Position numbers and translations under genes: made by a program. Below the pieces are notes generated by a model. The model was not told the origin of the DNA and searched no databases. It saw only the letters and a program-made list of their open reading frames with translations. Of a stretch of 64,000 nt of DNA, positions 4,186 to 63,206 are shown piece after piece. Source of the stretch: an uncultured Candidatus Saccharibacteria bacterium (GTDB taxonomy: Bacteria > Patescibacteriota > Minisyncoccia > Phycocordibacterales > WO2-35-19); contig CAYTTP010000001.1 of NCBI GenBank assembly GCA_964440955.1, forward strand, positions 14,388-78,387, in the 5' to 3' direction. The stretch's first letter is position 1. Every line of letters starts with the position of its first letter.

Positions 4186-4705
4186 ACTCTACTGTATACT
4201 CATAAGTATTGTTTTGCTTTGGTGTGATATTTAGAGAGCGAATGTCAAGGATCCTTAAACTTTTTTCAAGCTCTTCCATAAACGAAAGGAAAGATTCGTA
4301 GGAAGTGGTGAAGTTGAAACCAATAAGCCCAGAATGAAAACCTTTTTGATTTGCTGAATCACCTATGGTTTGACCATTTGAAGCTGAAATTTCCTGTTCG
4401 GAAACCCTCTGAATCACGATGCCGTATTTTTTGCCGATCGCCTCCACATCGGCGGTGAGCCTTACAAAATCAAATGAATCAGGCAAGATAGTATCGATGT
4501 CTTGTTTATTTTTATCAGAAAGAGCTGAAAATTGAGCTGCTAGTTGCTGCTTCTTTTCTTCTATTTGATTGATAGTTTCAAGCGAAGCTTCTCGTGCACT
4601 TTTTTCATCCTGTAAGACCTTCATGTCGTTATACATTGGATACGAAAACAAATAACCGACGATCACCGTCATCAACAATATTGATATTTGAGATACGCTG
4701 TTCAT
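4166..4705 (-). CDS. pilO: PilO-like inner-membrane pilus alignment protein
   Basis: One N-terminal TM helix, then a coiled coil and a periplasmic domain. The likely start is MNSVSQ; the longer track ORF overlaps pilN. Confidence 0.55.
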   Translation of the reverse strand: MNSVSQISILLMTVIVGYLFSYPMYNDMKVLQDEKSAREASLETINQIEEKKQQLAAQFSALSDKNKQDIDTILPDSFDFVRLTADVEAIGKKYGIVIQRVSEQEISASNGQTIGDSANQKGFHSGLIGFNFTTSYESFLSFMEELEKSLRILDIRSLNITPKQNNTYEYTVEFETYWL

Positions 4706-4709
4706 GTTT

Positions 4710-5396
4710 TTATAAATCTTCAAATGAAATATCCCCCACTTCCAAATCAATCGGTGCTAAATCATCTTCCAAGGAAGTCGATGTTGCGGTAGAGGTAGAA
4801 ACCCGAAGCGGCACCGAAACTGAAATCGGCGGGTCATAACGAAGAGCACCAGCCTCAACTGTAATAACCGCATCAAAACTTATACTTCCCTTTTCTGAAA
4901 GAGTAAGATTAGAAAAACTAATAGACTGGAAACTTTTTTCGTTTTTCAAAGCATTCTCCTGCAAAGCAACTGCCGCATAGCTTGGTGCCGACCCCTTAAC
5001 ATTCATTCGAAATGTATTTAGATCAGAATCAAAGACAAAACTGTTCCAATTGACACTACGCACCGTTGAGGAGGAGAGCGCCTCAATAGCATTTGAAGCA
5101 ACAAGATGGTTTTGGACGATTCCGCGAGCGATCGAAAGTTTGCGGCTAAAATCGTACATCCTTTTTATGCTCTTGCTATCAATATTTTTTTCAGCTTCGA
5201 CTAGTTGAGACTTAAGCGATTCGATATTGCCTTCTAGCATTTTTTTATACATATATAGACCGGCAGTCATTATCAAGACCAAAATAAAAAAGATCACTAT
5301 CAAAGTCGAAAAAATACTACCCTTCTTTTTTTGAAATGGTTCACTGCTGGTCACTGGACCTTTGGGTATGAAAGAAGATTGAAAATTTGGACCCAT
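4710..5396 (-). CDS. pilN: PilN-like inner-membrane pilus alignment protein
   Basis: 228 aa with an N-terminal TM helix, a coiled coil and a Ser/Thr-rich tail. It sits between the pilM-side insert and pilO. Confidence 0.55.
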   Translation of the reverse strand: MGPNFQSSFIPKGPVTSSEPFQKKKGSIFSTLIVIFFILVLIMTAGLYMYKKMLEGNIESLKSQLVEAEKNIDSKSIKRMYDFSRKLSIARGIVQNHLVASNAIEALSSSTVRSVNWNSFVFDSDLNTFRMNVKGSAPSYAAVALQENALKNEKSFQSISFSNLTLSEKGSISFDAVITVEAGALRYDPPISVSVPLRVSTSTATSTSLEDDLAPIDLEVGDISFEDL

Positions 5397-5408
5397 AGTT
5401 TCCCTCTC

Positions 5409-5439
5409 ATTATACTAAAGAGAAAACAATAGTGTTCAA
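5409..5439 (-). promoter_or_regulatory. sigma70-like promoter plus SD for pilN
   Basis: On the minus strand: TTGAAC(A), an 18-19 nt spacer, TATAAT, then GAGAGGGAAA and ATG. Confidence 0.45.
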
Positions 5440-5456
5440 AAAATGTGTGAATTACA

Positions 5457-5729
5457 CTACATCAATCTTTTTAATTTACGGTACACTTCATCGTCATTTC
5501 TTTTACCAATTAAAAATATAAGGACTTCCGAATCTGAAAATGAATATATTATCCTATACTCACCACTATCAACTCGAAAATACCCGATAAACCCAGTCAT
5601 GGCCTTGCTATCAGGAGGCAATGGATCATTTCCAAGACTAATAGATTTTTTAACTACTTGCTTTTGATGTTTCGTAGGAAGTTTGGAAACAAATTTCTTT
5701 GAAAGTTTTGAAAATCTTATGTTAAGCAT
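5457..5729 (-). CDS. relE: RelE/ParE-family type II toxin
   Basis: 90 aa. The C-terminal ...YRIIYSF...EVLIFLIGKRND...Y pattern is typical of RelE/StbE. It overlaps the upstream antitoxin by 8 nt. Confidence 0.7.
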   Translation of the reverse strand: MLNIRFSKLSKKFVSKLPTKHQKQVVKKSISLGNDPLPPDSKAMTGFIGYFRVDSGEYRIIYSFSDSEVLIFLIGKRNDDEVYRKLKRLM

Positions 5730-6100: not shown

Positions 6101-6330
6101 TGTCGAGACTCCGGCAAGACTACCTTGTGATACAGAAACATCCCGAGGATGGATCCGAACAACAAAGTCATCACACCGCAGGAGAACCCGAACCAGATGA
6201 TTGCGATGTTCACGGCCTCGAATACCGGATCGACGTTGCCCACAACTACACATGCGGCTACGGCGATCGAAAAGAGGATGATGGTTATCCCATATCCGAT
6301 AGGTCAAATGACTCTCAAAAACAATCTCAT
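6101..6330 (-). other. small hydrophobic ORF (about 2 TM helices) with an SD and ATG, interrupted by an in-frame TGA after codon 8
   Basis: AGGAGA-N6-ATG MRLFLRVI, then TGA, then PIGYGITIILFSIAVAACVVVGNVDPVFEAVNIAIIWFGFSCGVMTLLFGSILGMFLYHKVVLPESRHYT. The region is GC-rich. Confidence 0.3.
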
Positions 6331-6454
6331 ATTTTTCTCCTAAAGAACTTGGATTTTACTCCCACCGCAGGAAACTTTTTCAAATTCTCTCTGGTAGAAG
6401 TCCGAGGTGTATTCACTCGGACACCGGTTCGTCACCGGATTTTATACTGGCGGG

Positions 6455-7342
6455 CTACTGGGCCTTCTCCACGCGTTTCCACATGGGGACGTAGTGAACG
6501 TCCGGATCAGCAACGTCGAGTTCGGGGTGGGGCTTCACGGTCCACACACCAGGTTTGCAGTAGATCGAAAGCTCGGTAGAGCCTTTACCTACATTCACCC
6601 GGATAGAACCGCAGCCTTCGCGTGTATACCCCTTCCGTTCCGCTTCTCTCTCGCCGTTGCCTTGAAAGACATTCAGCTTGAAATGTTCGGGACGAGCGAA
6701 GGAGAACTTGAACTCCTGCGACTTGGTCACGATCAATCCGGTTTTGTTTTCCAGATTGAACAATACGACCGAGTTCACTTCAGAGACAAGTGTGTTCGCA
6801 CGAGTTTGGCCGAAAAGCGCGTTGAACGCTTTCACACCATCACCCGCTTTCCACTCGAAGTTGTGGTCGTGAGATTCAATCGCTTGAACCTGCGCGACTA
6901 CCGGATATTCAGCGAGTAGCTTGGATTCGCGCTCGATCTTCTTGTCGATGTCGAGCACGCGCTCACCGGTTTTCCGAAGTAAGTTCCGTAATTTACGGAA
7001 TCCTTCGGCCTCAGCGAACATATTGATGGCGAGATGCGAGAAGCTCGGCATGATGCGTTCGGTGTTGCCGAACCCACCTTCAAGCCACTTGCATTCAATT
7101 TCAGCGGCAGCGAGAGCGTTGATCACATCTTCTCCAAAAACTGGAAAGTGGTGATCGGATTCGTGACAGTCGCCGACAATGATGACCTTGGTTTTTCCAG
7201 TGGCTTTCACCTCCTGGATCAACAGGTTCATGTCTACGACGGCCGGGCAGAAATTGCCGGCGATAACGACGCAATCCTCGGCTACCTTCATGTCCAACTC
7301 GTAGCCATTCTTCGGGTCCTGGGTGAACGTAACTTTCTTCAT
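6455..7342 (-). CDS. hypothetical protein; possibly a metal-dependent hydrolase (GDCHESDHH motif). GC-rich and likely horizontally acquired
   Basis: 295 aa ORF preceded by a GGAGA SD. GC content is well above the surrounding sequence. I cannot place it in a family confidently. Confidence 0.5.
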   Translation of the reverse strand: MKKVTFTQDPKNGYELDMKVAEDCVVIAGNFCPAVVDMNLLIQEVKATGKTKVIIVGDCHESDHHFPVFGEDVINALAAAEIECKWLEGGFGNTERIMPSFSHLAINMFAEAEGFRKLRNLLRKTGERVLDIDKKIERESKLLAEYPVVAQVQAIESHDHNFEWKAGDGVKAFNALFGQTRANTLVSEVNSVVLFNLENKTGLIVTKSQEFKFSFARPEHFKLNVFQGNGEREAERKGYTREGCGSIRVNVGKGSTELSIYCKPGVWTVKPHPELDVADPDVHYVPMWKRVEKAQ

Positions 7343-7435
7343 TGTCTTTCTCCTTCTGGGGTTGCCAGTATGTGATTTTCAAGTAGGGTTGGGGCTACCA
7401 ACCGCTTGTACATAGGGTTTAACCTATCTGGATAT

Positions 7436-7464
7436 ATTATAGCAAATTATACCTTATTTGTCAA
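7436..7464 (-). promoter_or_regulatory. consensus sigma70 promoter (TTGACA-17-TATAAT) driving the inserted GC-rich gene
   Basis: On the minus strand: TTGACAaataaggtataatttgcTATAAT. A second TTGACAAAT repeat lies 20 nt upstream. Confidence 0.5.
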
Positions 7465-7541
7465 TTATTTTTTAGATTTGTCAAACAAGTCCTAATAAGC
7501 CTATTTGTAATGGGTTTTTTAAATTATCGTTAGAGCAAAAT

Positions 7542-8633
7542 CTACAACTCCCCCAGTGCTCGGAGGGCACAGCCAACGGCGACTGTAAATTCGGGGCCAG
7601 TCACTTTCAAAACATTTTCCAAGAAAGCAGGAGTTTCTACTTTTTCAAATGGGTTACCTGACACCACTTCAACTTTAAAATTAGAGGCCGCGAGTTCACG
7701 TAAGCCCCGCAAAGCTGACCCGCCACCAGTCAAAAATACCGAGCGAATATTTTCGTTACGCTTTTTTTGAAAAGTAAATAGAAAACGATTGGCTTCAGCA
7801 AATATCTCGGCGGCAATCACACTTGCTGCTTCGCTCAAATCAACCCCTTCAGGTGTTCGCCCCATGCCGATGTTTCGCTTCAATACTTCTGCTTCTTCAG
7901 TAGAGACATTCAAAAGCCGTGCAATATTGGCTGTAATATCTTGCGAGCCTCGGTTTACCGTATGGGAATGGTGAACAAGCCCACGCTCGACAATATAGAG
8001 TTTGGTAGTTGAAGCCCCCATGTCAAAAATCATAAGCGGTCCCTTTACTCCCTCAAGCACTGCTCTCATCGAACTAAAAACCTCGATCTCAAAAAATTTG
8101 GCGTCGATACCAGTTTTGTCCACTATTTCTTTGTATTGATTGATGATGTTGTTGTGGATAGCAACAAGAAGGACATCGAGTGTTTTGGGCTTCATTTCAC
8201 TGTCATCATCAGACTCTATTTTAGGTACGATTGACCAATCAAGAGTCACATCAGAAATCGGCACGGGGATATATTTTCGCGCTTCAATCGGCACTAGGCT
8301 TGCAAGCTCTTTCTCGGTCATTTTTGGTACTTCTATAACCGACATCAAACTCGCTCTGAAAGGTATGGCGAGTCCGGCAATATGAGTACTTAATCCAACC
8401 TCTTTTTCTGCTAGCAAATCACCTATCGCTTGAATTATTTTTTCTGTCGGCAAATTGGTCGACTGACCAACCGACACCTCAGCATAAGGTCCGAGCGAAA
8501 GCTCCCCATAAGTATTGAGGATGGCTTTGTCCCCTTTCTTTTCGAGTTGCACCACTTTGATTGAAGATGAACCTATGTCTATACCCAAAGCGGAAACACT
8601 TTTCTTTTTGAAGATGTCCGAAAGAAAACTCAT
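7542..8633 (-). CDS. pilM: type IV pilus assembly ATPase-like protein PilM (actin fold)
   Basis: 363 aa. The N-terminal GIDIGSSSIKVVQL and the two actin-like (ASKHA) half-domains are typical of PilM and FtsA. Confidence 0.75.
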   Translation of the reverse strand: MSFLSDIFKKKSVSALGIDIGSSSIKVVQLEKKGDKAILNTYGELSLGPYAEVSVGQSTNLPTEKIIQAIGDLLAEKEVGLSTHIAGLAIPFRASLMSVIEVPKMTEKELASLVPIEARKYIPVPISDVTLDWSIVPKIESDDDSEMKPKTLDVLLVAIHNNIINQYKEIVDKTGIDAKFFEIEVFSSMRAVLEGVKGPLMIFDMGASTTKLYIVERGLVHHSHTVNRGSQDITANIARLLNVSTEEAEVLKRNIGMGRTPEGVDLSEAASVIAAEIFAEANRFLFTFQKKRNENIRSVFLTGGGSALRGLRELAASNFKVEVVSGNPFEKVETPAFLENVLKVTGPEFTVAVGCALRALGEL

Positions 8634-34241: not shown

Positions 34242-36884
34242 TTATGCGGCCCTGCTTTGGAGTTGGTGTTTCGATACAGCAAGCTCATTGAGCCGACCAA
34301 AAAATTGTTCTACGGTCTCGTTTTCATAAGGCTTTATGTCATTACCGACATACTGCATCATTTGATTCATCCTCTCCATCAATGCTTGATGAGTTTTTGA
34401 AGCACCAAGTACCTCAACCGCCGCCTCATCCAACCCTGGTGAAATCGAGTTTTGGGTAAAAAATGTTATAACCGCCTTGGCCGGCATTTTTTTGACTGCA
34501 AGCCATTCCGGGTTTATTTCCCCACCCTGTTTTGGGCCGGTACCAAAAAATCCAGTTTTCTTGCCATACAAATCATCAAGTTCATATTTCAAATTGTTTT
34601 CTAGAGAGTTCGACGCCATCAAAGAGTTTGTATGGCGATCGACATCGCTACTCATTGATCGCACAAGTTCGAGTTCGGGTTTTGCTTTGGGTAATGGCTC
34701 CAAAACGGCAGGTGGCTCCTCGGCTTCTGGTATCTTATTTTTTATTTCTTCTATTATGTCCTGAAATTCTTTCATAAAATCTCTGAATTCAGGGCTACTG
34801 ATATCTTTATTTTTATAAAAGGTTTTTATTTTTTCTCCTGAATCTTGCAAATAACTTATCCATTCATCCAACTCTTTTGGTTTATCAAGAGAAGTGGAGA
34901 CTTTCATTTTTTGCATTTGCAAAAGTTCCAAAAAAACTCTCCTTTCCTTTTGGACCTCCGAAAAAGTATGGAAAACTTGATTTTCCATAGGATCCAAACC
35001 TTCTGGAGCTTTAAATGACTCGTCTGATGTTGCATCCACTATACCTGCCGCCTTAGGTTTTTGACTCAAAATCTCTTCTACCTTCACTTCGGTATTTGGG
35101 TTTGCTTCGACCCAGGCCGATATTTTTTTATTATTTTCCAATATCAAATCCTGCTTTGCCGAGTCAAGTCCATCGGCCTTTTCAAAAACACCTTCGATGT
35201 ATTTTTTGTCTTCAAAAAGCTTGGTGAAATCGAGTTTGTCACCTTGCCAAATCACCCCACCACTTCTCGTACCAAAGGCAGTCGGGTCACTATTGACCTC
35301 ATTTATCAAATGATTTACGACAAAAGTCTTTTGGGCTTCGCTCATATTGGCAAAGCGTTCGTTGCTCTCGAGTGAACCGTGCAAAATTTTCCAAAGAGAG
35401 TCTCCTTTCTCAACAGTGTGAAGCGCGCGCGAAGGGTCCTTCAGGATCGACTCATTTTCAACTTTCGCTTTAGCCAAGACTTCCTCTTTTGCTTCCATCT
35501 CCGATGGGCCAGTTGATTGAGTTTTTGACACTCCAACTTCGGTAGTTCCTGTTTTTGGCTTTTCTTCAAAAGAGACGCCGGTTTTTATGTTGCCGTTTAA
35601 CAGGCCTTCCGTTAACCCAACAATAAGTCCTGTACCCGCACCTGCCCCAATAGTGACCGCCGCTTTTTTGATTTTTGCGTTTCGTCTTTCTTTTTCATAA
35701 TACTCGGCTATAGAGCGTAGTTTTTGGGCCTGTTCGGCAAGCGAAATGTTTTCATCGTTTAGCACCAACTGCTTTTCCTCCTCCTCTTTTTTGTTAAGCT
35801 CTTCCACTGACCAGCTTTTCTTGTTTTCGGCCCATATACCAGCCGCAGTCGAAAAACCAAACGAAGCCGCTCTCTTTGCTACACCAAAACCACCGTAAGC
35901 GATAGCTCCTCCGGCTGTTAGCGTCCCCAAAGCATAACCAACTCCACCTCCCACCAAAACCAAAGAGGAAGTGATAGCAAACCTTGTCAATTTATCCTGT
36001 TTCAAAAACCAAGAAACCGCCTTGTTTTTCAAAAGCCCTCTCGCCTTTTCAAGTACCTTGTCTCCCAAAGTTTCGCCCCACACCTTTCTAAATTCCTCCA
36101 AGTATTCTTTTTGATCATTGATCAAAAATTCGTTTCGGGCTTCTTTGAGCAGATCGGGGTTTTCGCCATATTCAGACTTCATTTCATCTACAACCAAAAC
36201 TCTCGCCTGCTCGTACAAACTCTTAGCCCTTTCTCGATCGTCTACGATTCTTTTATGCTCTTCTTCAGTTGTCCCACCTTTTAGACTTTTTTTGGCCACA
36301 TACTCAAGCTCGGCATACCGGCTTCTTGCTTGTTTAAAATTTTTATAGGCTTCGCTCTCTCGCCAACCTTCAACATTTACCTGCTTAGCTTCTGGGACAG
36401 CTCCGCTTTTTTTATCTTGAGTGTCAAATAAATCAGGGTAAAGCGTCAGCCTATCTTTATTAGAAGATTTTCTGGAATTCTGTATTTCAAGCAAAAATTC
36501 AGTAAGACTTTCTAGATCAGCGTCAGGTCCCAAAGTAAGGAAACCTGATGTACCAACCATATCGTGAGCCGTCGAACCATTGGTGGATAATCTTACTTTA
36601 TCTATATAGGTATCAATCGGATCTTTCAATCCAGCCTTTCTTAGAGCATCCAAAAATGTTTCAAATAACTTCTCATTTGACCCCCTAGCCGCGTCTATTT
36701 CAAAACCCATCTTTTGAATCTCCTGCTTGACCTCCTCAGCATGGGCAACCTCCGCTTTGGTCCGCCCATCCGGACCAACTACCAAATCATCGTTGCTTAT
36801 ACCATCAAGGTTTAAATCTTTAATAGCCTGTGTGTCAGCATCACTCAAAACATAATGTGACAAATCATCTTTTGAAGGATTCAT
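34242..36884 (-). CDS. large hypothetical membrane protein (880 aa) with central glycine-zipper TM hairpins and a LysM-like segment
   Basis: Continuous 880-aa ORF with a coiled-coil N-terminal region and central GGGVGYALGTLTAGGAIAYGGFGVA and GAGAGTGLIVGLTEGLL segments. VEKGDSLWKIL resembles a LysM core. Confidence 0.6.
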   Translation of the reverse strand: MNPSKDDLSHYVLSDADTQAIKDLNLDGISNDDLVVGPDGRTKAEVAHAEEVKQEIQKMGFEIDAARGSNEKLFETFLDALRKAGLKDPIDTYIDKVRLSTNGSTAHDMVGTSGFLTLGPDADLESLTEFLLEIQNSRKSSNKDRLTLYPDLFDTQDKKSGAVPEAKQVNVEGWRESEAYKNFKQARSRYAELEYVAKKSLKGGTTEEEHKRIVDDRERAKSLYEQARVLVVDEMKSEYGENPDLLKEARNEFLINDQKEYLEEFRKVWGETLGDKVLEKARGLLKNKAVSWFLKQDKLTRFAITSSLVLVGGGVGYALGTLTAGGAIAYGGFGVAKRAASFGFSTAAGIWAENKKSWSVEELNKKEEEEKQLVLNDENISLAEQAQKLRSIAEYYEKERRNAKIKKAAVTIGAGAGTGLIVGLTEGLLNGNIKTGVSFEEKPKTGTTEVGVSKTQSTGPSEMEAKEEVLAKAKVENESILKDPSRALHTVEKGDSLWKILHGSLESNERFANMSEAQKTFVVNHLINEVNSDPTAFGTRSGGVIWQGDKLDFTKLFEDKKYIEGVFEKADGLDSAKQDLILENNKKISAWVEANPNTEVKVEEILSQKPKAAGIVDATSDESFKAPEGLDPMENQVFHTFSEVQKERRVFLELLQMQKMKVSTSLDKPKELDEWISYLQDSGEKIKTFYKNKDISSPEFRDFMKEFQDIIEEIKNKIPEAEEPPAVLEPLPKAKPELELVRSMSSDVDRHTNSLMASNSLENNLKYELDDLYGKKTGFFGTGPKQGGEINPEWLAVKKMPAKAVITFFTQNSISPGLDEAAVEVLGASKTHQALMERMNQMMQYVGNDIKPYENETVEQFFGRLNELAVSKHQLQSRAA

Positions 36885-53883: not shown

Positions 53884-53995
53884 TATTAATCAAATAAAAA
53901 GACTAGTCTACCACAAGGCCAGCCCACTAGAACGGGCTGGCCTTAGACTTTTAAAAACATTGAATTCGTGTAGAATGATCAATATTGATCAGATA

Positions 53996-54128
53996 ATAAG
54001 GAAGGGTGTCAGAGTGTTGATTTCCGAGCCTACGCAGGAAATCAAAGCCGGACCGAGCGTAGGCGAGGGAGGCGGGGTCGCGAGATTTTTCTAGCCAGAA
54101 AAATACTTGTGACCTAATGTGCACCTCG
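53996..54128 (+). repeat. degenerate partial duplicate of tRNA-Ser (5' 17 nt, then about 94 nt containing a GC-rich repeat-family fragment, then a D/anticodon-like segment)
   Basis: ataaggaagggtgtcagagtg is shared with the real tRNA at 54163-54183. gtgacctaatgtgcacct echoes tRNA positions 17-33. gagcgtaggcgagggaggcggggtcgcg resembles the repeat-family tail. Confidence 0.45.
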
Positions 54129-54168: not shown

Positions 54169-54257
54169 GGAAGGGTGTCAGAGTGGTCTAATGTGCATCT
54201 TTGCTAAAGATGTGTGCCCTTTAAAAGGCACCGAGGGTTCGAATCCCTCCCCTTCCG
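54169..54257 (+). tRNA. tRNA-Ser(GCU)
   Basis: GGAAGGG acceptor; anticodon arm CATCT-TTGCTAA-AGATG with GCT at positions 34-36; long variable arm GTGCC…GGCAC; T-arm GAGGG-TTCGAAT-CCCTC; acceptor 3' strand CCCTTCC; discriminator G. One mismatch in the D-stem. Confidence 0.75.
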
Positions 54258-54472
54258 CAAAAAAGCGAGAGCACGCAAGCTTTTTTGCGGAAGTCGCTCT
54301 ACAAGAGCGAGTTTCGCGTAGCGAAATGGGAGGGATTCGAAGGCCGGAAGAAATTTTTTAGCAAAAAAATTTCTGAGGCGGGGTCGCGCAAAAATTTAGC
54401 AAAATTTTATGTGTGACCGAATCCCTAGAAACACTCTCGAGTCGTGAAAATTTTTGGTTTTGGTTCCAACGC

Positions 54473-55255
54473 TTATTTTTTATTGAAGCGCTTAAAGTAG
54501 TCATCGATTTCGCCACGAAGTTCAATTCCAACTCGTTCAAAACAATCTAATAAATCTTTGTATGTGCCTTTACCACCAAGAAAATCCCAAAATTCATCAG
54601 CTACTTTAAGCTCATTATCCAAATCAAGCATTCCACGCATTGTCCATCGAGTGTAGGGTTCTGGTTCGTAAGGATTATATGGAATTGCGATAAATGTGTT
54701 TATATCGGCTTTTGGATTGTTCGCCAAAGTTACAGCGACCCATTCAAGTAGTGTTCGTTTAAATTCCTTAAATCCTCCAGCATTAGGTTTTGCTGTTTTT
54801 ATATCAAATAAATAATAACCGCCGTCTTTTGATTCAAACATTAAATCTACTTTGGTAGGTTTTGCTTTTATCATCTCACCAGACTGACAAACTTTTCTTA
54901 TTCGTTCAATTTCTTCTTTTTTGTTTGGTGATGATGTCGCTGTCGTTAGCCCGTCAATAATTTTCTGTATTTCTGCTTGTGCGCCAGTGCTTATACGATC
55001 TCCGGCAGTAGCTTGGCATGTAGCCATTTTAAAATTCTTTTGTGCTAAAGCTAAGCCAACCGGTTCAAAAATACTTGTTCCAAAATTAGTATTGAGCGAA
55101 TGGATAAATGAATAAAGTGCCAATCTATCCTTACCCAAAAGACGAGTATGGAATGGCATCGAAGCCGGTTCCGGTTTGTAATTTTGGAATTTGTTTCTGA
55201 GACTTGCTTTTAATACATCCTCAACATTCTTAACTTGTTCTTTTGATAGTGTCAT
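54473..55255 (-). CDS. type II restriction endonuclease (PD-(D/E)xK fold)
   Basis: 260 aa. The putative catalytic region is …MFESKDGGYYLFDIKTAK… It lies 4 nt downstream of a DNA methyltransferase gene. Confidence 0.6.
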   Translation of the reverse strand: MTLSKEQVKNVEDVLKASLRNKFQNYKPEPASMPFHTRLLGKDRLALYSFIHSLNTNFGTSIFEPVGLALAQKNFKMATCQATAGDRISTGAQAEIQKIIDGLTTATSSPNKKEEIERIRKVCQSGEMIKAKPTKVDLMFESKDGGYYLFDIKTAKPNAGGFKEFKRTLLEWVAVTLANNPKADINTFIAIPYNPYEPEPYTRWTMRGMLDLDNELKVADEFWDFLGGKGTYKDLLDCFERVGIELRGEIDDYFKRFNKK

Positions 55256-55259
55256 AAAA

Positions 55260-56834
55260 TTATACTGATTTAAAATGAAAAATTATTTCGGAATATGGAT
55301 TCCTGTCCCGTTCTGTTCGATTCAAAACAGGTCTTTTAAATTGATTCACAATCTTCATTCCAGATTTTTCAGCAATTTCTGGATAGAGATTGTATTTATC
55401 GTTTGCCACAAGGAAAATGTCATAATCATCTTTTAAGTATTTCTTACAATTATTTAGCACATCAGCTATTCCTTGGGCGTATGATCTACGTGCCTCCTGT
55501 CCTTGTCCTTTGTAAAGAGGACCAATTTCTAGATCGTCTTTTCTCTTAAAACCCAGCAAATCATAAGCATAGGCGTGTTGTTCGTGATAATCTATCTGTC
55601 CAACATATGGAGGCGAGCAAAATATACCCGAAATTTTTTGTTTTTTGAGAATCTTTGCAAACTCCGGATTTTGCTTTTCAACTTTTTCAAAAATATCCAC
55701 AGCTCTTGAATCACCAGCAATAGCCGAGTAATGGACTGGTTTTCGCAATCTTTCAAATTCCTTAATTCTTGAAACTGTATCGTAAGCGTAACGATTAAGC
55801 ATTGTTTTTATAGAGAACAACGGCTTGCAAATCTTTTTATGCTTATAACAATAGTATGTAGTTAGTTGAGGTTCTTTTAGAGTAGCAAGATCACTGTGTG
55901 TTGTAGCTCGGCATGACCTAATTGTTCGACTCAAAATCAGAGCTAAAATCTTTTTTGTTTTCACATCCTTCTCTTGCTTTATGGTGTTAAAGACATGATT
56001 AATTTCTTTTCTCACATTATCCATAAACCAAGTGTCTAAAAATGATTCAGTCTTGTCTTGTTTCAGTTTTATTGAATATTTTTTGAGTAATTTTTGATAT
56101 GTAGGCAAAAACTCCTTTTCTTTTTCTGAAGAAAACTTTTTTTCATCAAAATTTCCCTGATTTATTTTATATTTGAAATCTGAGCCGGGAAAATGTTTGT
56201 TATTAAATTTTGCCAATTCTGCCAACAACTCTGTTTCAAATTCTTGTATTCTGTTATCATGCTCAAAAGTATCTATTGCGGAGAGCATTTTTTTAATTGC
56301 TTTCTGTAAATAGTCGTGATCATAGTTTGTTGCCTTGCAACTCGCAATCATGCAATTAAACTCAGACACATCAATACCCACGGAATGGATACCCATTTCT
56401 AGTGACTGAATAATTGTTGTTCCTGAACCTAAAAAAGGATCGAGGACTATATCACCGGTTTTAAAATAAACTTCTTTTTTAAAATCATCAGTATGGGAAT
56501 CAATAAAATATTCAACCAGTTGCGGAATATATTTTCCTTTGTATGGATGTAATCTATGAACATGCTTCGTCGTATCTTTTTCCCTGAGATTATCAAAAGA
56601 CAACGCCCAGTTTAAGTCATCGCCAAGTTGTTTTTTCCAATCAATCTCTCGTTTACCTTTCCATGATTCGTAATACTTTTTCAAATCATTCAAATCAACA
56701 AGGGTTGATCCATTTTCTCCAAGTTTCTTAACCTTACCGTATTGAACAAGGTAAGAAATATTTGTTGGCGATACTTCTTTTTCAAGATAGTCCGTCGCCC
56801 ATTTTGATGCTTCGTGTATAGTTACTAATGACAT
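55260..56834 (-). CDS. DNA methyltransferase (amino-MTase with motif I DPFLGSGTT and motif IV SPPY; N6-adenine or N4-cytosine)
   Basis: 524 aa. FxGxG-type DPFLGSGTT lies near residue 130 and CSPPYVGQIDY near residue 415, an alpha-like motif order. Confidence 0.75.
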   Translation of the reverse strand: MSLVTIHEASKWATDYLEKEVSPTNISYLVQYGKVKKLGENGSTLVDLNDLKKYYESWKGKREIDWKKQLGDDLNWALSFDNLREKDTTKHVHRLHPYKGKYIPQLVEYFIDSHTDDFKKEVYFKTGDIVLDPFLGSGTTIIQSLEMGIHSVGIDVSEFNCMIASCKATNYDHDYLQKAIKKMLSAIDTFEHDNRIQEFETELLAELAKFNNKHFPGSDFKYKINQGNFDEKKFSSEKEKEFLPTYQKLLKKYSIKLKQDKTESFLDTWFMDNVRKEINHVFNTIKQEKDVKTKKILALILSRTIRSCRATTHSDLATLKEPQLTTYYCYKHKKICKPLFSIKTMLNRYAYDTVSRIKEFERLRKPVHYSAIAGDSRAVDIFEKVEKQNPEFAKILKKQKISGIFCSPPYVGQIDYHEQHAYAYDLLGFKRKDDLEIGPLYKGQGQEARRSYAQGIADVLNNCKKYLKDDYDIFLVANDKYNLYPEIAEKSGMKIVNQFKRPVLNRTERDRNPYSEIIFHFKSV

Positions 56835-56843
56835 AAGTTTATT

Positions 56844-57470
56844 TTATAATTCTTTTCTTAATACTCCTACGACCTTTCCTTGAATGACGACATTTGATTC
56901 GTAAAACGGCTTCATGGTTTGATTTGCTGGAACAAGTTTTACCCTATCTTTTTCCCTGTATATTTTTTTAAGTGTTACTTCGTTTCTATCTGGCATATAC
57001 GCAACTGCTTTTTCTCCATCTTCGATAGTTTGTTGATCGTGAACAATAACAATATCGCCATCCATAATTCCTTCCTCAATCATACTTAATCCAGAAACTT
57101 TGAGCGCATAATATTGAGAAGGACTACGAAGCATTGATCGTGGCACTTCAATCATTTCTTCGGTGCGTATTGCTTCAATGGGACCACCAGCAGAAATAAT
57201 TCCGAGAAGTGGTATATCGACAAGTGGTGATTTATAATCCTGTGGAGCAATGATCGATCGTTTCCTGCCTCTTTCCATTTTTAATAAACCTTTTTTCCAT
57301 AAAGCGTGAACATGTTGATGTATTGTCGGCACTGACACATCAAAATGCTTCGCTGTTTCGACTTGCGAAGGGGCATAACCATTCTCTCGTCGATAAGCAC
57401 GAATAAAATCCAAAACCTCGGCCTCACGCTTGGTTGGTTTATCTGTTGTAACACTTGACTCTTCTTTCAT
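56844..57470 (-). CDS. lexA: LexA repressor (S24 peptidase)
   Basis: 208 aa. The N-terminal LexA winged HTH (…EVLDFIRAYRRENGYAPSQVETAKHFDVSVPTIHQHVHALWKKGLL…), a cleavage-site region and the S24 Ser/Lys dyad region (VSGLSM…GDIVIV…K) are present. Confidence 0.85.
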   Translation of the reverse strand: MKEESSVTTDKPTKREAEVLDFIRAYRRENGYAPSQVETAKHFDVSVPTIHQHVHALWKKGLLKMERGRKRSIIAPQDYKSPLVDIPLLGIISAGGPIEAIRTEEMIEVPRSMLRSPSQYYALKVSGLSMIEEGIMDGDIVIVHDQQTIEDGEKAVAYMPDRNEVTLKKIYREKDRVKLVPANQTMKPFYESNVVIQGKVVGVLRKEL

Positions 57471-57475
57471 GAGTT

Positions 57476-57485
57476 TAGTATACTA
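57476..57485. promoter_or_regulatory. perfect 10-bp palindrome TAGTATACTA 6 nt upstream of the lexA start; candidate operator
   Basis: A self-complementary sequence overlapping the lexA ribosome-binding region, in the 91-bp divergent lexA/HNH intergenic region. Confidence 0.35.
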
Positions 57486-57561
57486 CCTAAAGATAACCTA
57501 AACAAGCACTGGTTATCCACAGAATTAAAGGTCGAAACAATAAGCTAAACAATTAACCATT

Positions 57562-57861
57562 ATGGCAAGAAATCGAAGTACAAAACGCGATGGAGCATCT
57601 TTTGATGAAGCAGTAATTGAAGCTGTTTGGAAAAAAGGAACTCCGGAATCATATGAAAGTTTTCGGAAAGATGTCTGCGGCGCTAGTATGCAACGTTCAA
57701 AATACGGAGAGACTGTACAATGGGGTTGGGAGATTGATCACATCAAACCAGTCGCCTTGGGTGGCTCAGACGATTTGAGCAATTTGCAACCGCTCCAGTG
57801 GGAAAATAATCGTGCGAAGAGCGATGAGTACCCACACAAAACATGTGCTGTCAGAAGCTAG
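57562..57861 (+). CDS. HNH endonuclease (99 aa, free-standing)
   Basis: HNH motif …WEIDHIKPVALGGSDDLSNLQPLQWENNRAK…. Confidence 0.75.
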   Translation: MARNRSTKRDGASFDEAVIEAVWKKGTPESYESFRKDVCGASMQRSKYGETVQWGWEIDHIKPVALGGSDDLSNLQPLQWENNRAKSDEYPHKTCAVRS

Positions 57862-57975
57862 GTGCTTGGAAAACGTGCTGATGTAAATAGAGCCTGCGTA
57901 CTTGATACGACACTCTGAACTTCAGCTACGATGGAACGGCACGCACAAAGGCGATTGGAAAGCACACCTTCCAAC

Positions 57976-58000
57976 AAAATCCCCTTACGGGGATTTTGTT
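57976..58000 (+). terminator. hairpin terminator after the HNH gene
   Basis: aaaatcccc ttac ggggatttt. Confidence 0.55.
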
Positions 58001-58717
58001 ATTGTGAATCTTATAGGGAGCCGTCCGCGTTAGCTGGCGAATTCGTGCGCGCATTGGGCGGGCGGGGCAAGCACATATAGATTTGCTTGTGCCTAGCACA
58101 ATCCGCTTTTTAGAGTTATCACAGGCTCAATCGAAGCCACAGAGCGAATACGAAGCAAACACCGAGCAGGCATCGTGAGCGAATGCGAACGGCCTATGCG
58201 AGGTGGTTGCGAAGTGTGAGCGTACTCTCGAACTATCACAAAACGCAGATACGGGGAGCGCCTCGCACCGACGCGAATGACGGAGGAAAGGACGGACAAA
58301 ATATCGCCACAATGCTAAAATATAAATACAAGTCCTTTCTGGAGGAATGAAGCGTCGGAATCAAAACCAAAAATTTCCTTTCCATTTTTTGTCGGCTCCC
58401 CCCACACCCCCCGCCGAAAATCTAAGAAAGGAAGGAAAATTTTTGGTTTTGTACCGCGACCGAAGGGAGCGGACGAGGCGCGCATTAGCATTTAGTCATT
58501 TGGATTCTGCTCGAAATACATTCGAACTTTGTCCAACAAACACCGCAAACGCAAACTGTCTGTCGCAGACAGAAACAGTTTTCAGTTTGCGGAAGGGAGA
58601 AAGTGCTTTGAATAGCACTTTCGTGAGGATTCGAAAGGCGGAGCGGGCCCCGCTTTAGCAAAAGCGGGAGCGAGCCAGGGTCGTGAAAATTTTTGAGCGA
58701 CGGCGAAAAAATTATTC

Positions 58718-58741
58718 ATGACCGAATCCCCTCTTCCGCCA
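58718..58741 (+). repeat. degenerate direct repeat of the tRNA-Ser 3' end (att-like)
   Basis: tgaccgaatcccctcttccgccag compared with the tRNA 3' end ggttcgaatccctccccttccgcaa. Flanking motifs (ttagcaaaa, gtcgtgaaaatttttg, ggattcgaa) are shared with 54330-54455. Confidence 0.5.
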
Positions 58742-58842
58742 GTATTTTTGAAAAACAATGCTCAAAATTCTTTTGTTTTGCGGTACATTTAAAAACTAAG
58801 AAGTGATAAAATAGGTGAGCCTCCAAAAGACCAAAAACAAAA

Positions 58843-59439
58843 ATGAAAGATAAAGAAATACCCACAAATCCAGATCAATTTTTCCCTTGGTTAAAGACAG
58901 AGAGCGAGAAACTTTGGGAAGACATTGAACTCAATAATACTATTTACGGATTTCAATTGCAGGCTGGAACAAAATGGCTCCCCGGTCTCAATGACGAGCA
59001 AATCGCAAACTATGAGAAAGACGTTGGATTTATTTTTCCTAAAGTCTTTAGAACATTCCTTAAATACATGAATGGTACTGATAAACAAACAATAAATGTA
59101 TATGGTGGTTCCGACAAACCACATACTTATGGTGTCGGTTACTATTCTTATCCAAGAGATATTCAAGCAGTCAAAGACATGATCACTTGGATTTTTGAAG
59201 AATACAAGATATCAGAAAAAGACTTAGAGAAACAAACCATTCCTCATGTGTTGCCAATCATATCGCACAGATTTATCGTGGCAGATAGGTGCGAAACAAA
59301 TCCGGTACTGTCAATGCATGGTACAGATACGATTTTATACGCTAATTCTTTGCAAGACTTTTTAATTAGCGATATTTTCGCCAATCATCAACGAGAGTCA
59401 GATTTACAAAATATAGAAGTGAAGTTTTGGTTGGATTAA
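58843..59439 (+). CDS. SMI1/KNR4 (SUKH-1) family protein, a putative immunity protein
   Basis: 198 aa. …FFPWLKTESEK… and …KWLPGLNDEQIANYEKDVGFIFPKVFRTFLKYMNGTD… follow the SUKH pattern (W, LP, Y, FL, NG). Confidence 0.6.
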   Translation: MKDKEIPTNPDQFFPWLKTESEKLWEDIELNNTIYGFQLQAGTKWLPGLNDEQIANYEKDVGFIFPKVFRTFLKYMNGTDKQTINVYGGSDKPHTYGVGYYSYPRDIQAVKDMITWIFEEYKISEKDLEKQTIPHVLPIISHRFIVADRCETNPVLSMHGTDTILYANSLQDFLISDIFANHQRESDLQNIEVKFWLD

Positions 59440-63087: not shown

Positions 63088-63160
63088 GCGCGCATAGCTC
63101 AGTTGGTAGAGCATTCCGCTTATACCGGAACGGTCCTTGGTTCGAGTCCAAGTGCGCGCA
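63088..63160 (+). tRNA. tRNA with anticodon UAU (tRNA-Ile reading AUA)
   Basis: GCGCGCA-TA-GCTC AGTTGGTA GAGC-A-TTCCG CTTATAC CGGAA-CGGTC-CTTGG TTCGAGT CCAAG-TGCGCGC-A. A textbook cloverleaf with positions 34-36 reading TAT. Confidence 0.7.
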
Positions 63161-63206
63161 CAAAATATTTACGACGACAAACGTCTAAAAAACTTAAAAA
63201 AGCAAA

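Follow-up and report, generated by a model that had tools for sequence, protein, structure and literature searches.

A restriction-modification (R-M) system has to keep methylation and cutting in balance, when it enters a new cell and also later. A 2025 review of R-M systems (PMC12707154) describes promoter methylation, helix-turn-helix (HTH)-methyltransferase fusions, antisense RNA and C proteins as means of control, and LexA is unmentioned. Here we describe a locus in which a type II R-M pair lies directly behind the gene for a LexA-family repressor. It is located in a 64,000-nucleotide stretch, hereafter the window, from an uncultured Candidatus Saccharibacteria bacterium (GenBank assembly GCA_964440955.1, contig CAYTTP010000001.1, positions 14,388 to 78,387 of the forward strand). 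All coordinates below are those of the window.

RecA-sensitive, self-cleaving S24 repressors are found on mobile DNA, as with lambda CI and SXT SetR. CapH/CapP of the cyclic-oligonucleotide-based anti-phage signalling system (CBASS) exemplifies a regulator shared among defence islands, and some such regulators respond to DNA damage. In the C-protein R-M systems (PvuII, BamHI, AhdI and Esp1396I; PMC12707154), a small dedicated DNA-binding protein heads the R-M genes, binds its own promoter, autoregulates, and sets the timing and level of R-M expression. C proteins have an Xre-type HTH, are about 80-100 aa long, activate and then repress at C-boxes, and have no sensory domain. Regulatory methyltransferases of the SsoII/Ecl18kI type carry an N-terminal HTH, and overlapping divergent promoters compete there (PMC12707154). 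After DNA damage, type I systems undergo restriction alleviation: ClpXP degrades HsdR, which couples the restriction/modification balance to the damage and spares unmethylated DNA that has been repaired (PMC12707154).

We read the locus as one instance of a modular LexA-plus-promoter platform with interchangeable R-M cargo and proposed LexA control, widespread in Patescibacteria (the Candidate Phyla Radiation, CPR), and hold this reading with a confidence midway between doubt and acceptance. Full-text literature searches found no paper linking LexA to R-M control, and a study of the Patescibacteria SOS network (Sanchez-Osuna et al. 2017) lies outside their coverage and may overlap; LexA-type control of R-M cargo is apparently undescribed.

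The lexA-headed cassette and its exchangeable cargo

Three co-oriented open reading frames (ORFs) occupy the minus strand in the order lexA, methyltransferase (M) and endonuclease (R), separated by gaps of 9 nt and 4 nt, and a fourth gene diverges from lexA:

57470-56844, minus strand: lexA, encoding a 208-aa repressor of the LexA family that joins a winged HTH to a self-cleaving S24 domain
56834-55260, minus strand: M, encoding a 524-aa methyltransferase of the N6_N4 family, with motif I before motif IV (SPPY)
55255-54473, minus strand: R, encoding a 260-aa type II restriction endonuclease of the TdeIII family
57562-57861, plus strand: HNH endonuclease gene, 99 aa, Pfam HNH, divergent from lexA

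The regulator had been called a bona fide LexA in a reading made from the sequence only, and domain searches and structural alignment agree. The protein matches Pfam LexA_DNA_bind (PF01726, 3.4e-11, residues 13-71) and Peptidase_S24 (PF00717, 2.2e-26), and passes the NCBIfam lexA equivalog model (TIGR00498) with 167 bits against a cut-off of 111. Alignment to the E. coli and Thermotoga LexA structures placed the cleavage site at A94-G95 and the catalytic dyad at S129/K168. These residues are kept in 75 of 81 family members, and the six exceptions are fusions that carry the DNA-binding domain only. The recognition helix PTIHQH is conserved across the family. Judged by its catalytic residues, which were the part examined, the protein keeps the cleavage machinery and is predicted to be self-cleaving.

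This LexA is the sole regulator encoded in the cassette, which has no gene for a small Xre-type HTH protein, and the conserved block upstream contains a direct repeat and a -10 palindrome, with no C-box repeats. It resembles a C protein in heading the R-M genes. Unlike C proteins, it is 208 aa long, combines a winged HTH with an S24 domain, precedes M and not R, and has a direct repeat as its candidate operator; the autoregulation and the setting of R-M timing and level that C proteins perform are for LexA here a proposal.

M matches Pfam N6_N4_Mtase (PF01555, 1.5e-15), and both the FxGxG motif (as DPFLGSGTT) and SPPY are present, while R matches Pfam RE_TdeIII over its full length (8.5e-96). 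Palindrome avoidance in the window, used as a guide to the recognition site, pointed to no clear candidate (ratio 1.0 for GANTC and 0.88 for GGNCC). Plasmids of Clostridium and Vibrio encode TdeIII-family endonucleases that carry the same annotation and have no adjoining LexA.

LexA homologues at 68-95% identity are numerous. In 16 of 16 inspected loci encoding such a LexA, collected from look-ups and a genome scan, M and a TdeIII-family R follow directly downstream and the flanking genes differ, which bears out the close linkage of lexA to the R-M pair. DNA homology among the loci extends from about 58 nt upstream of the lexA ATG to just past the R stop, corresponding to 57528-54446, with its left limit at about 57521-57530. 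As a separate observation, two loci carry an extra gene between M and R, of 570 aa in L170 (ORF 6237-7949) and 375 aa in L205 (ORF 4414-5541).

Comparison with loci L011-L013 revealed a mosaic. The M and R proteins are 98-99% identical to those of the window, and the LexA proteins 73-75%. At the DNA level, the first ~500 nt of lexA share 59-68% identity, and the final ~130 nt of the gene together with M and R share 94-100%. Because of this jump about 500 nt into the gene, we take the conserved 3' end of lexA as a crossover point for cargo exchange. By these alignments, cargo and repressor have separate histories.

A metagenome scan for exact matches to the 19-nt repeat of the lexA promoter (described below) returned at least 120 loci. 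Of the matches listed, about 116 of 120 either stand immediately before a lexA gene or show the same promoter where the contig ends, and the rest are three apparent chance matches and one decayed promoter without lexA. Many of the listed LexA proteins are 45-66% identical to that of the window and are followed by other methyltransferases in place of the TdeIII cassette. A same-strand methyltransferase gene follows lexA in 66 of the 70 loci with at least 1.7 kb of downstream sequence, again among the matches listed, and two further loci of these 70 have Vsr and then a diverged C5 methylase.

By Pfam assignment, the cargo includes N6_N4 enzymes with TdeIII; C5 DNA_methylase, with or without Vsr, together with a convergent HindVP endonuclease; three Eco57I/TaqI_C-type enzymes; one beta-class N6_N4 enzyme; and one D12/Dam enzyme. 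In BrxR/WYL, too, one regulator family adjoins many defence systems (PMC9122589), with different proteins and sensing chemistry.

In-frame fusions of LexA to the methyltransferase were found on independent contigs, in the arrangements LexA_DNA_bind + Peptidase_S24 + N6_N4_Mtase and LexA_DNA_bind + N6_N4_Mtase (fusion ORFs with complete LexA or the winged helix only: L139, L155, L106, L110, L130; L118, L135, L161, L167, L186, L203). In having a LexA DNA-binding domain joined to a methyltransferase, these relatives resemble the SsoII/Ecl18kI type, and the overlapping divergent promoter-like sites of the locus recall the competing promoters there. They differ from that type in that a LexA-type winged helix is joined to the enzyme, in some cases along with the complete S24 protease; in the window the repressor is a separate protein.

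On the other side of the promoter, a divergent ORF starts beside the conserved block in 109 of 122 loci, among the matches listed. These divergent genes are very diverse and defence-like, including HNH, ThsB_TIR, SMODS+AGS_C, GIY-YIG and MBL (metallo-beta-lactamase fold) proteins. The HNH gene of the window is the variable left-hand cargo of a bidirectional promoter.

The promoter block upstream of lexA

The sequence between lexA and the HNH gene contains the following elements:

57512-57521, minus strand: upstream element TGTGGATAAC, at the left edge of the DNA common to the loci
57500-57505, minus strand: -35-like TTGTTT of the inferred promoter in the lexA direction, 17 nt from the -10
57484-57503, minus strand: tandem repeat GTTTAGGTTATCTTTAGGTA (TTTAGGT twice, period 11), filling the promoter spacer
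57476-57485, both strands: palindrome TAGTATACTA, holding the -10 hexamers of two overlapping, opposed promoter-like sites
57455-57484, plus strand: divergent promoter-like site TTGACT-18-TATACT toward the HNH gene, with its -35 within lexA codons 4-6

Fourteen loci found by LexA protein similarity (LexA down to 68% identical) form an unbiased set for conservation of the repeat. Their upstream block reads TG[T/G]GGATAAC - N5 - CTTGTTTAGGTTAT[C/G]TTTAGGTA[G/T]TATA[C/A]T - N6 - ATG. The tandem repeat is invariant in 13 of the 14, and CTTGTTT, which includes the -35-like hexamer, in all 14. In the metagenome loci, invariance of the repeat is uninformative because these loci were ascertained with it; cargo, the TG[T/G]GGATAA element, the -10-to-ATG spacing and the TCA codon described below lie outside the search pattern.

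Since promoter spacers are not normally conserved, and since the recognition helix PTIHQH is conserved alongside it, TTTAGGT-N4-TTTAGGT is the best candidate for the LexA operator. It occurs once in the window at up to 3 mismatches. Direct-repeat LexA boxes are known in Alphaproteobacteria, where GTTC-N7-GTTC likewise has a period of 11 (PMC8565304).

Among the matches listed, 101 of 110 unique promoters carry the TG[T/G]GGATAA element 14-16 nt before the repeat. In the window TGTGGATAA occupies 57513-57521, and its reverse complement TTATCCACA resembles or equals the DnaA-box consensus. We considered GATAACC...GGTTATC as a hairpin or a long LexA palindrome and rejected it; the outer pairs are not kept and the spacing varies from 14 to 16 nt.

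In the window, 6 nt separate the lexA ATG from the -10 hexamer TATACT (57482-57477, minus strand). The ATG is exactly 6 nt past the -10 in 98 of the 110 unique promoters, among the matches listed, and these 6 nt vary in sequence. Because the start codon falls exactly 6 nt after the -10, the geometry fits a leaderless lexA mRNA, which we predict. A Shine-Dalgarno-like motif precedes only 5 of 66 genes in the window, and several others have the same -10-N6-ATG layout.

On the opposite strand, the divergent site has its -10 at 57479-57484, inside the palindrome, and scores 10 of 12 in a promoter scan, joint best among 12 sites. Codon 5 of lexA is TCA in 95 of 99 promoters, and the opposite-strand TTGACT is present in 88 of 99, both among the matches listed. 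The pattern indicates that conservation of this codon is at the DNA level. The module thereby offers a clear case of predicted leaderless, overlapping divergent promoters in uncultivated bacteria.

The sequence-only reading had proposed the palindrome, placed 6 nt upstream of the lexA ATG, as an autoregulatory operator. Its position at 57476-57485 holds, and its distance to the ATG is 5 nt. The proposed function does not fare as well: the palindrome coincides with -10 hexamers on both strands, only 19 of the 110 unique related promoters, among the matches listed, have the exact 10-mer, and perfect 10-bp palindromes are at chance frequency in the window (67, compared with 69 +/- 8 in shuffles). 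The significance of this one must therefore come from conservation across loci. TAGTATACTA has a single exact copy in the window, and the count of copies with up to 2 mismatches (18, with 16 expected) is uninformative. The palindrome is a poor operator candidate.

The inner 8 bp behave differently from the perfect 10-mer. Among the matches listed, the inner 8-mer is AGTATACT in 57 of the 110 unique promoters, ATTATAAT, also a palindrome, in 34, and asymmetric in 18, so that symmetry is kept in 91 of 110 through a paired change; both symmetric forms turn up inside several LexA subgroups. The -10 palindrome might be an operator bound by a symmetric protein, whether LexA or some other, and this would be compatible with LexA control from the tandem repeat. 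We regard such binding as improbable. Two overlapping divergent promoters that each need a -10 explain the symmetry equally well, 8 bp is short for a LexA dimer, and the promoter sequences are related, so that the pairing is not a clean statistic. It is plausible that the symmetry of the 8-mer reflects the need for a -10 on both strands.

Apart from these, L171 contains, near position 632, a complete promoter block whose -10 is mutated (TATTATGCC) and which no lexA follows, apparently a decayed remnant of the module.

Proposed LexA control and the SOS regulon

That LexA alone controls the R-M genes is probably not the case. A -10-like box precedes M in the window:

56841-56846, minus strand: TAAAAT, -10-like, overlapping the lexA stop and 6 nt before the M ATG

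Among 29 unique cassette variants, 20 have TANNNT at this 6-nt spacing before the M ATG, usually in the extended -10 form TGnTAAAAT; no other spacing is found in more than 3. Because the box recurs at leaderless spacing, M likely has its own basal leaderless promoter. For R in the window, no -10-like box stands at the proper distance, and its transcription would have to come from upstream.

These boxes speak for the view that no regulatory link exists, LexA regulating only itself, M and R being transcribed from their own promoters, and the tight spacing reflecting genome compaction. Some cassette variants show the -10-N6-ATG geometry before R too, and the scarcity of Shine-Dalgarno motifs and recurrence of that geometry in the window point the same way. 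Set against it are the lack of any terminator-like site on the coding strand within lexA-M-R, the missing R box in the window, and the LexA-methyltransferase fusions and near-universal association, which favour a functional link. We give this view little credence.

A more serious competitor, though one we still think unlikely, is that this LexA is an ordinary SOS repressor with hitch-hiking cargo, a recombination hot spot between the lexA 3' end and a hairpin or tRNA-Ser beyond R (described below) having accumulated R-M genes. SOS induction of M and R would then be a by-product, or of modest use to the cell, for instance by adding methylation after repair synthesis. The protein passes the lexA equivalog model and keeps its cleavage machinery, the LexA-plus-promoter unit is found with many cargoes, and M has its own promoter-like element. 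The breakpoint inside lexA, with near-identical M-R beside diverged lexA 5' parts, suggests that lexA stays and the cargo moves.

On the other hand, at least 94% of loci, among the matches listed, have a methyltransferase next, drawn from unrelated families, and the in-frame fusions are hard to square with a global regulator. The flanks of R-M-linked lexA genes are variable, whereas other Patescibacteria LexAs (~40% identity; L014, L016 and L018) lie in the conserved context tyrS-lexA-glycosyltransferase-xseA, with a different upstream sequence and no R-M genes. Further sites resembling the TTTAGGT repeat were not found beyond chance in 0.89 Mb (the window plus the loci), a small sample of sequence close to lexA. 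Within the 64 kb of the window there is no second lexA, and no DNA-damage gene of the recA, uvrA or translesion-polymerase type. Compared with canonical LexA/SOS systems, the locus shares the domains, the cleavage site, the Ser/Lys dyad and a candidate operator in the lexA promoter, and differs in that no repair gene is tied to it, a methyltransferase is nearly always next to it or fused, and the genomic context varies.

We favour the modular platform with LexA control, whose order is TG[T/G]GGATAA, -35, TTTAGGT-N4-TTTAGGT, -10, 6 nt and the lexA ATG, with R-M genes downstream and a variable defence gene divergent. In the proposed mechanism, LexA made from a leaderless transcript would bind the tandem repeat in its own promoter and repress both overlapping promoters, and hence read-through into M and R, with M keeping a basal supply from its own -10-N6-ATG promoter. 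RecA filaments, arising from self-restriction of under-methylated DNA, repair synthesis or phage attack, would trigger self-cleavage of LexA at A94-G95 and derepress the operon. In a naive host without repressor, the module would fire once and then repress itself. LexA would thereby take the role of C proteins or HTH-methyltransferase fusions, with an added DNA-damage input. With its cleavage residues conserved, the control platform is probably DNA-damage-responsive.

Several points weigh against this proposal. The invariance of the repeat in the at least 120 metagenome loci follows by construction, leaving the 14 protein-ascertained loci as the unbiased set, and locus counts were not de-replicated by organism. 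We infer the operator from the conservation and position of the repeat. M, and possibly R, may depend little on LexA, since M has a -10-like box at leaderless spacing in 20 of 29 variants. The mosaic pattern fits a resident lexA next to a recombination hot spot equally well. Alternatively, one housekeeping LexA may control repair genes as well, and the scan for its sites covered lexA-proximal sequence.

A more specific form of the proposal is an integron-like defence platform, in which a resident, RecA-sensing LexA-family repressor and a bidirectional leaderless promoter stay in place and R-M and other defence genes are swapped by recombination; we advance it tentatively, as somewhat less probable than its negation.

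If such a platform exists, expression of type II R-M systems would be wired directly to DNA breakage, constituting a new class of R-M controller and a transcriptional counterpart of restriction alleviation. Type I alleviation responds to DNA damage at the protein level and under host control (PMC12707154), unlike the coupling proposed here, which would be transcriptional and module-encoded. A self-cleaving LexA as the common controller of unrelated R-M systems would be a device with a built-in DNA-damage sensor that links defence to SOS, and the LexA-methyltransferase fusions would be the most compact form of the platform. Such a device would help to account for the way in which CPR bacteria, with their tiny genomes, handle and trade defence genes. 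The promoter block (60 bp) and the protein (208 aa) are both short enough to be tested directly.

Mobility and genomic surroundings

The genes around the cassette (ribosomal-protein, secY, pilus and recG-type) belong to a bacterium with a small genome, and the closest public relative is the Parcubacteria metagenome-assembled genome NIOZ-UU136 (JACNGX01), with 91% DNA identity to the window. The module occurs there and likewise in MFTV01, JAKLGL01 and DAONFW01. Features that bear on mobility lie on both sides:

54169-54258, plus strand: tRNA-Ser(GCT), converging on the endonuclease gene
54448-54474: first 27 nt of a hairpin element, all that remains of it after the R stop in the window
58362-58451: full 90-nt copy of the hairpin element, within a non-coding stretch

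The non-coding stretch spans about 850 nt (57900-58800), has ~50% GC compared with 42% in its flanks, and has no Rfam match; an Rfam search in and around the locus returned tRNAs only. In L005, L007, L008, L010, L011 and L013, the full hairpin directly follows the R stop.

A tRNA-Ser gene (gct, gga or cga) follows the cassette in 7 of 11 scanned sequences, and a tRNA called Asn in two more. Around tRNA-Ser(GCT) in the window are pieces of tRNA-Ser at 53995-54016 and 54328-54341, a copy of the 5' end and an inverted copy of the T-arm. A large serine recombinase (Resolvase + Recombinase + Zn_ribbon) is encoded downstream of the cargo in L013, L039, L101, L180, L192 and L206, and in L013 it sits between the cargo and the tRNA. 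The tRNA-Ser is likely an integration or recombination landmark, and the tRNA-Ser pieces, the variety of isoacceptors and the recombinases suggest repeated site-specific insertion. A tRNA-like fragment at ~58720-58741 was considered as the far end of an island and set aside as a weak hint, with no support from BLAST.

These features raise the prospect of a CI/SetR-like repressor of a small integrative island, in which LexA would control excision or transfer through the large serine recombinase and the R-M genes would be addiction cargo. Besides the tRNA-Ser after the cassette in most loci, its fragments in the window and the recombinases past the cargo in the six loci above, the base composition of M and R (30-36% GC, compared with 42-45% in the flanks) is in keeping with such an island, and in SCCmec, large serine recombinases are known to be under LexA control (PMC5397144). 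The recombinase is nevertheless absent from the window, the recombinase genes of the related loci have no operator copy nearby, and the DNA-binding domain is LexA-type and not of the Xre/CI type. Two scans of viral contigs (IMG/VR) found no copy of the module: the LexA peptide gave no matches, and 45 matches to the repeat were coding tandem repeats in unrelated phage contigs and were discarded. Neither suggestion of the sequence-only reading, SOS control of the R-M genes or a CI/SetR-type regulator of the island, is an exact fit; the lack of copies on the viral contigs scanned argues against a prophage CI, and we consider the island version very improbable.

The locus is like lambda CI and SXT SetR in that a repressor of a self-cleaving family, its cleavage predicted here, travels with horizontally moving DNA. 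Those two have an Xre/CI-type HTH and control genes for lysis or transfer, whereas the module has R-M cargo and is not found on viral contigs.

Further from the cassette, an 880-aa ORF at 34242-36884 has no NCBIfam match. Just past the non-coding stretch, a gene at 58843-59439 with low GC (32-34%) encodes a SUKH/SMI1-KNR4 family protein; members of this family often provide immunity against polymorphic toxins. A tRNA-Ile with the anticodon TAT, believed uncommon in bacteria, is located at 63088-63161.

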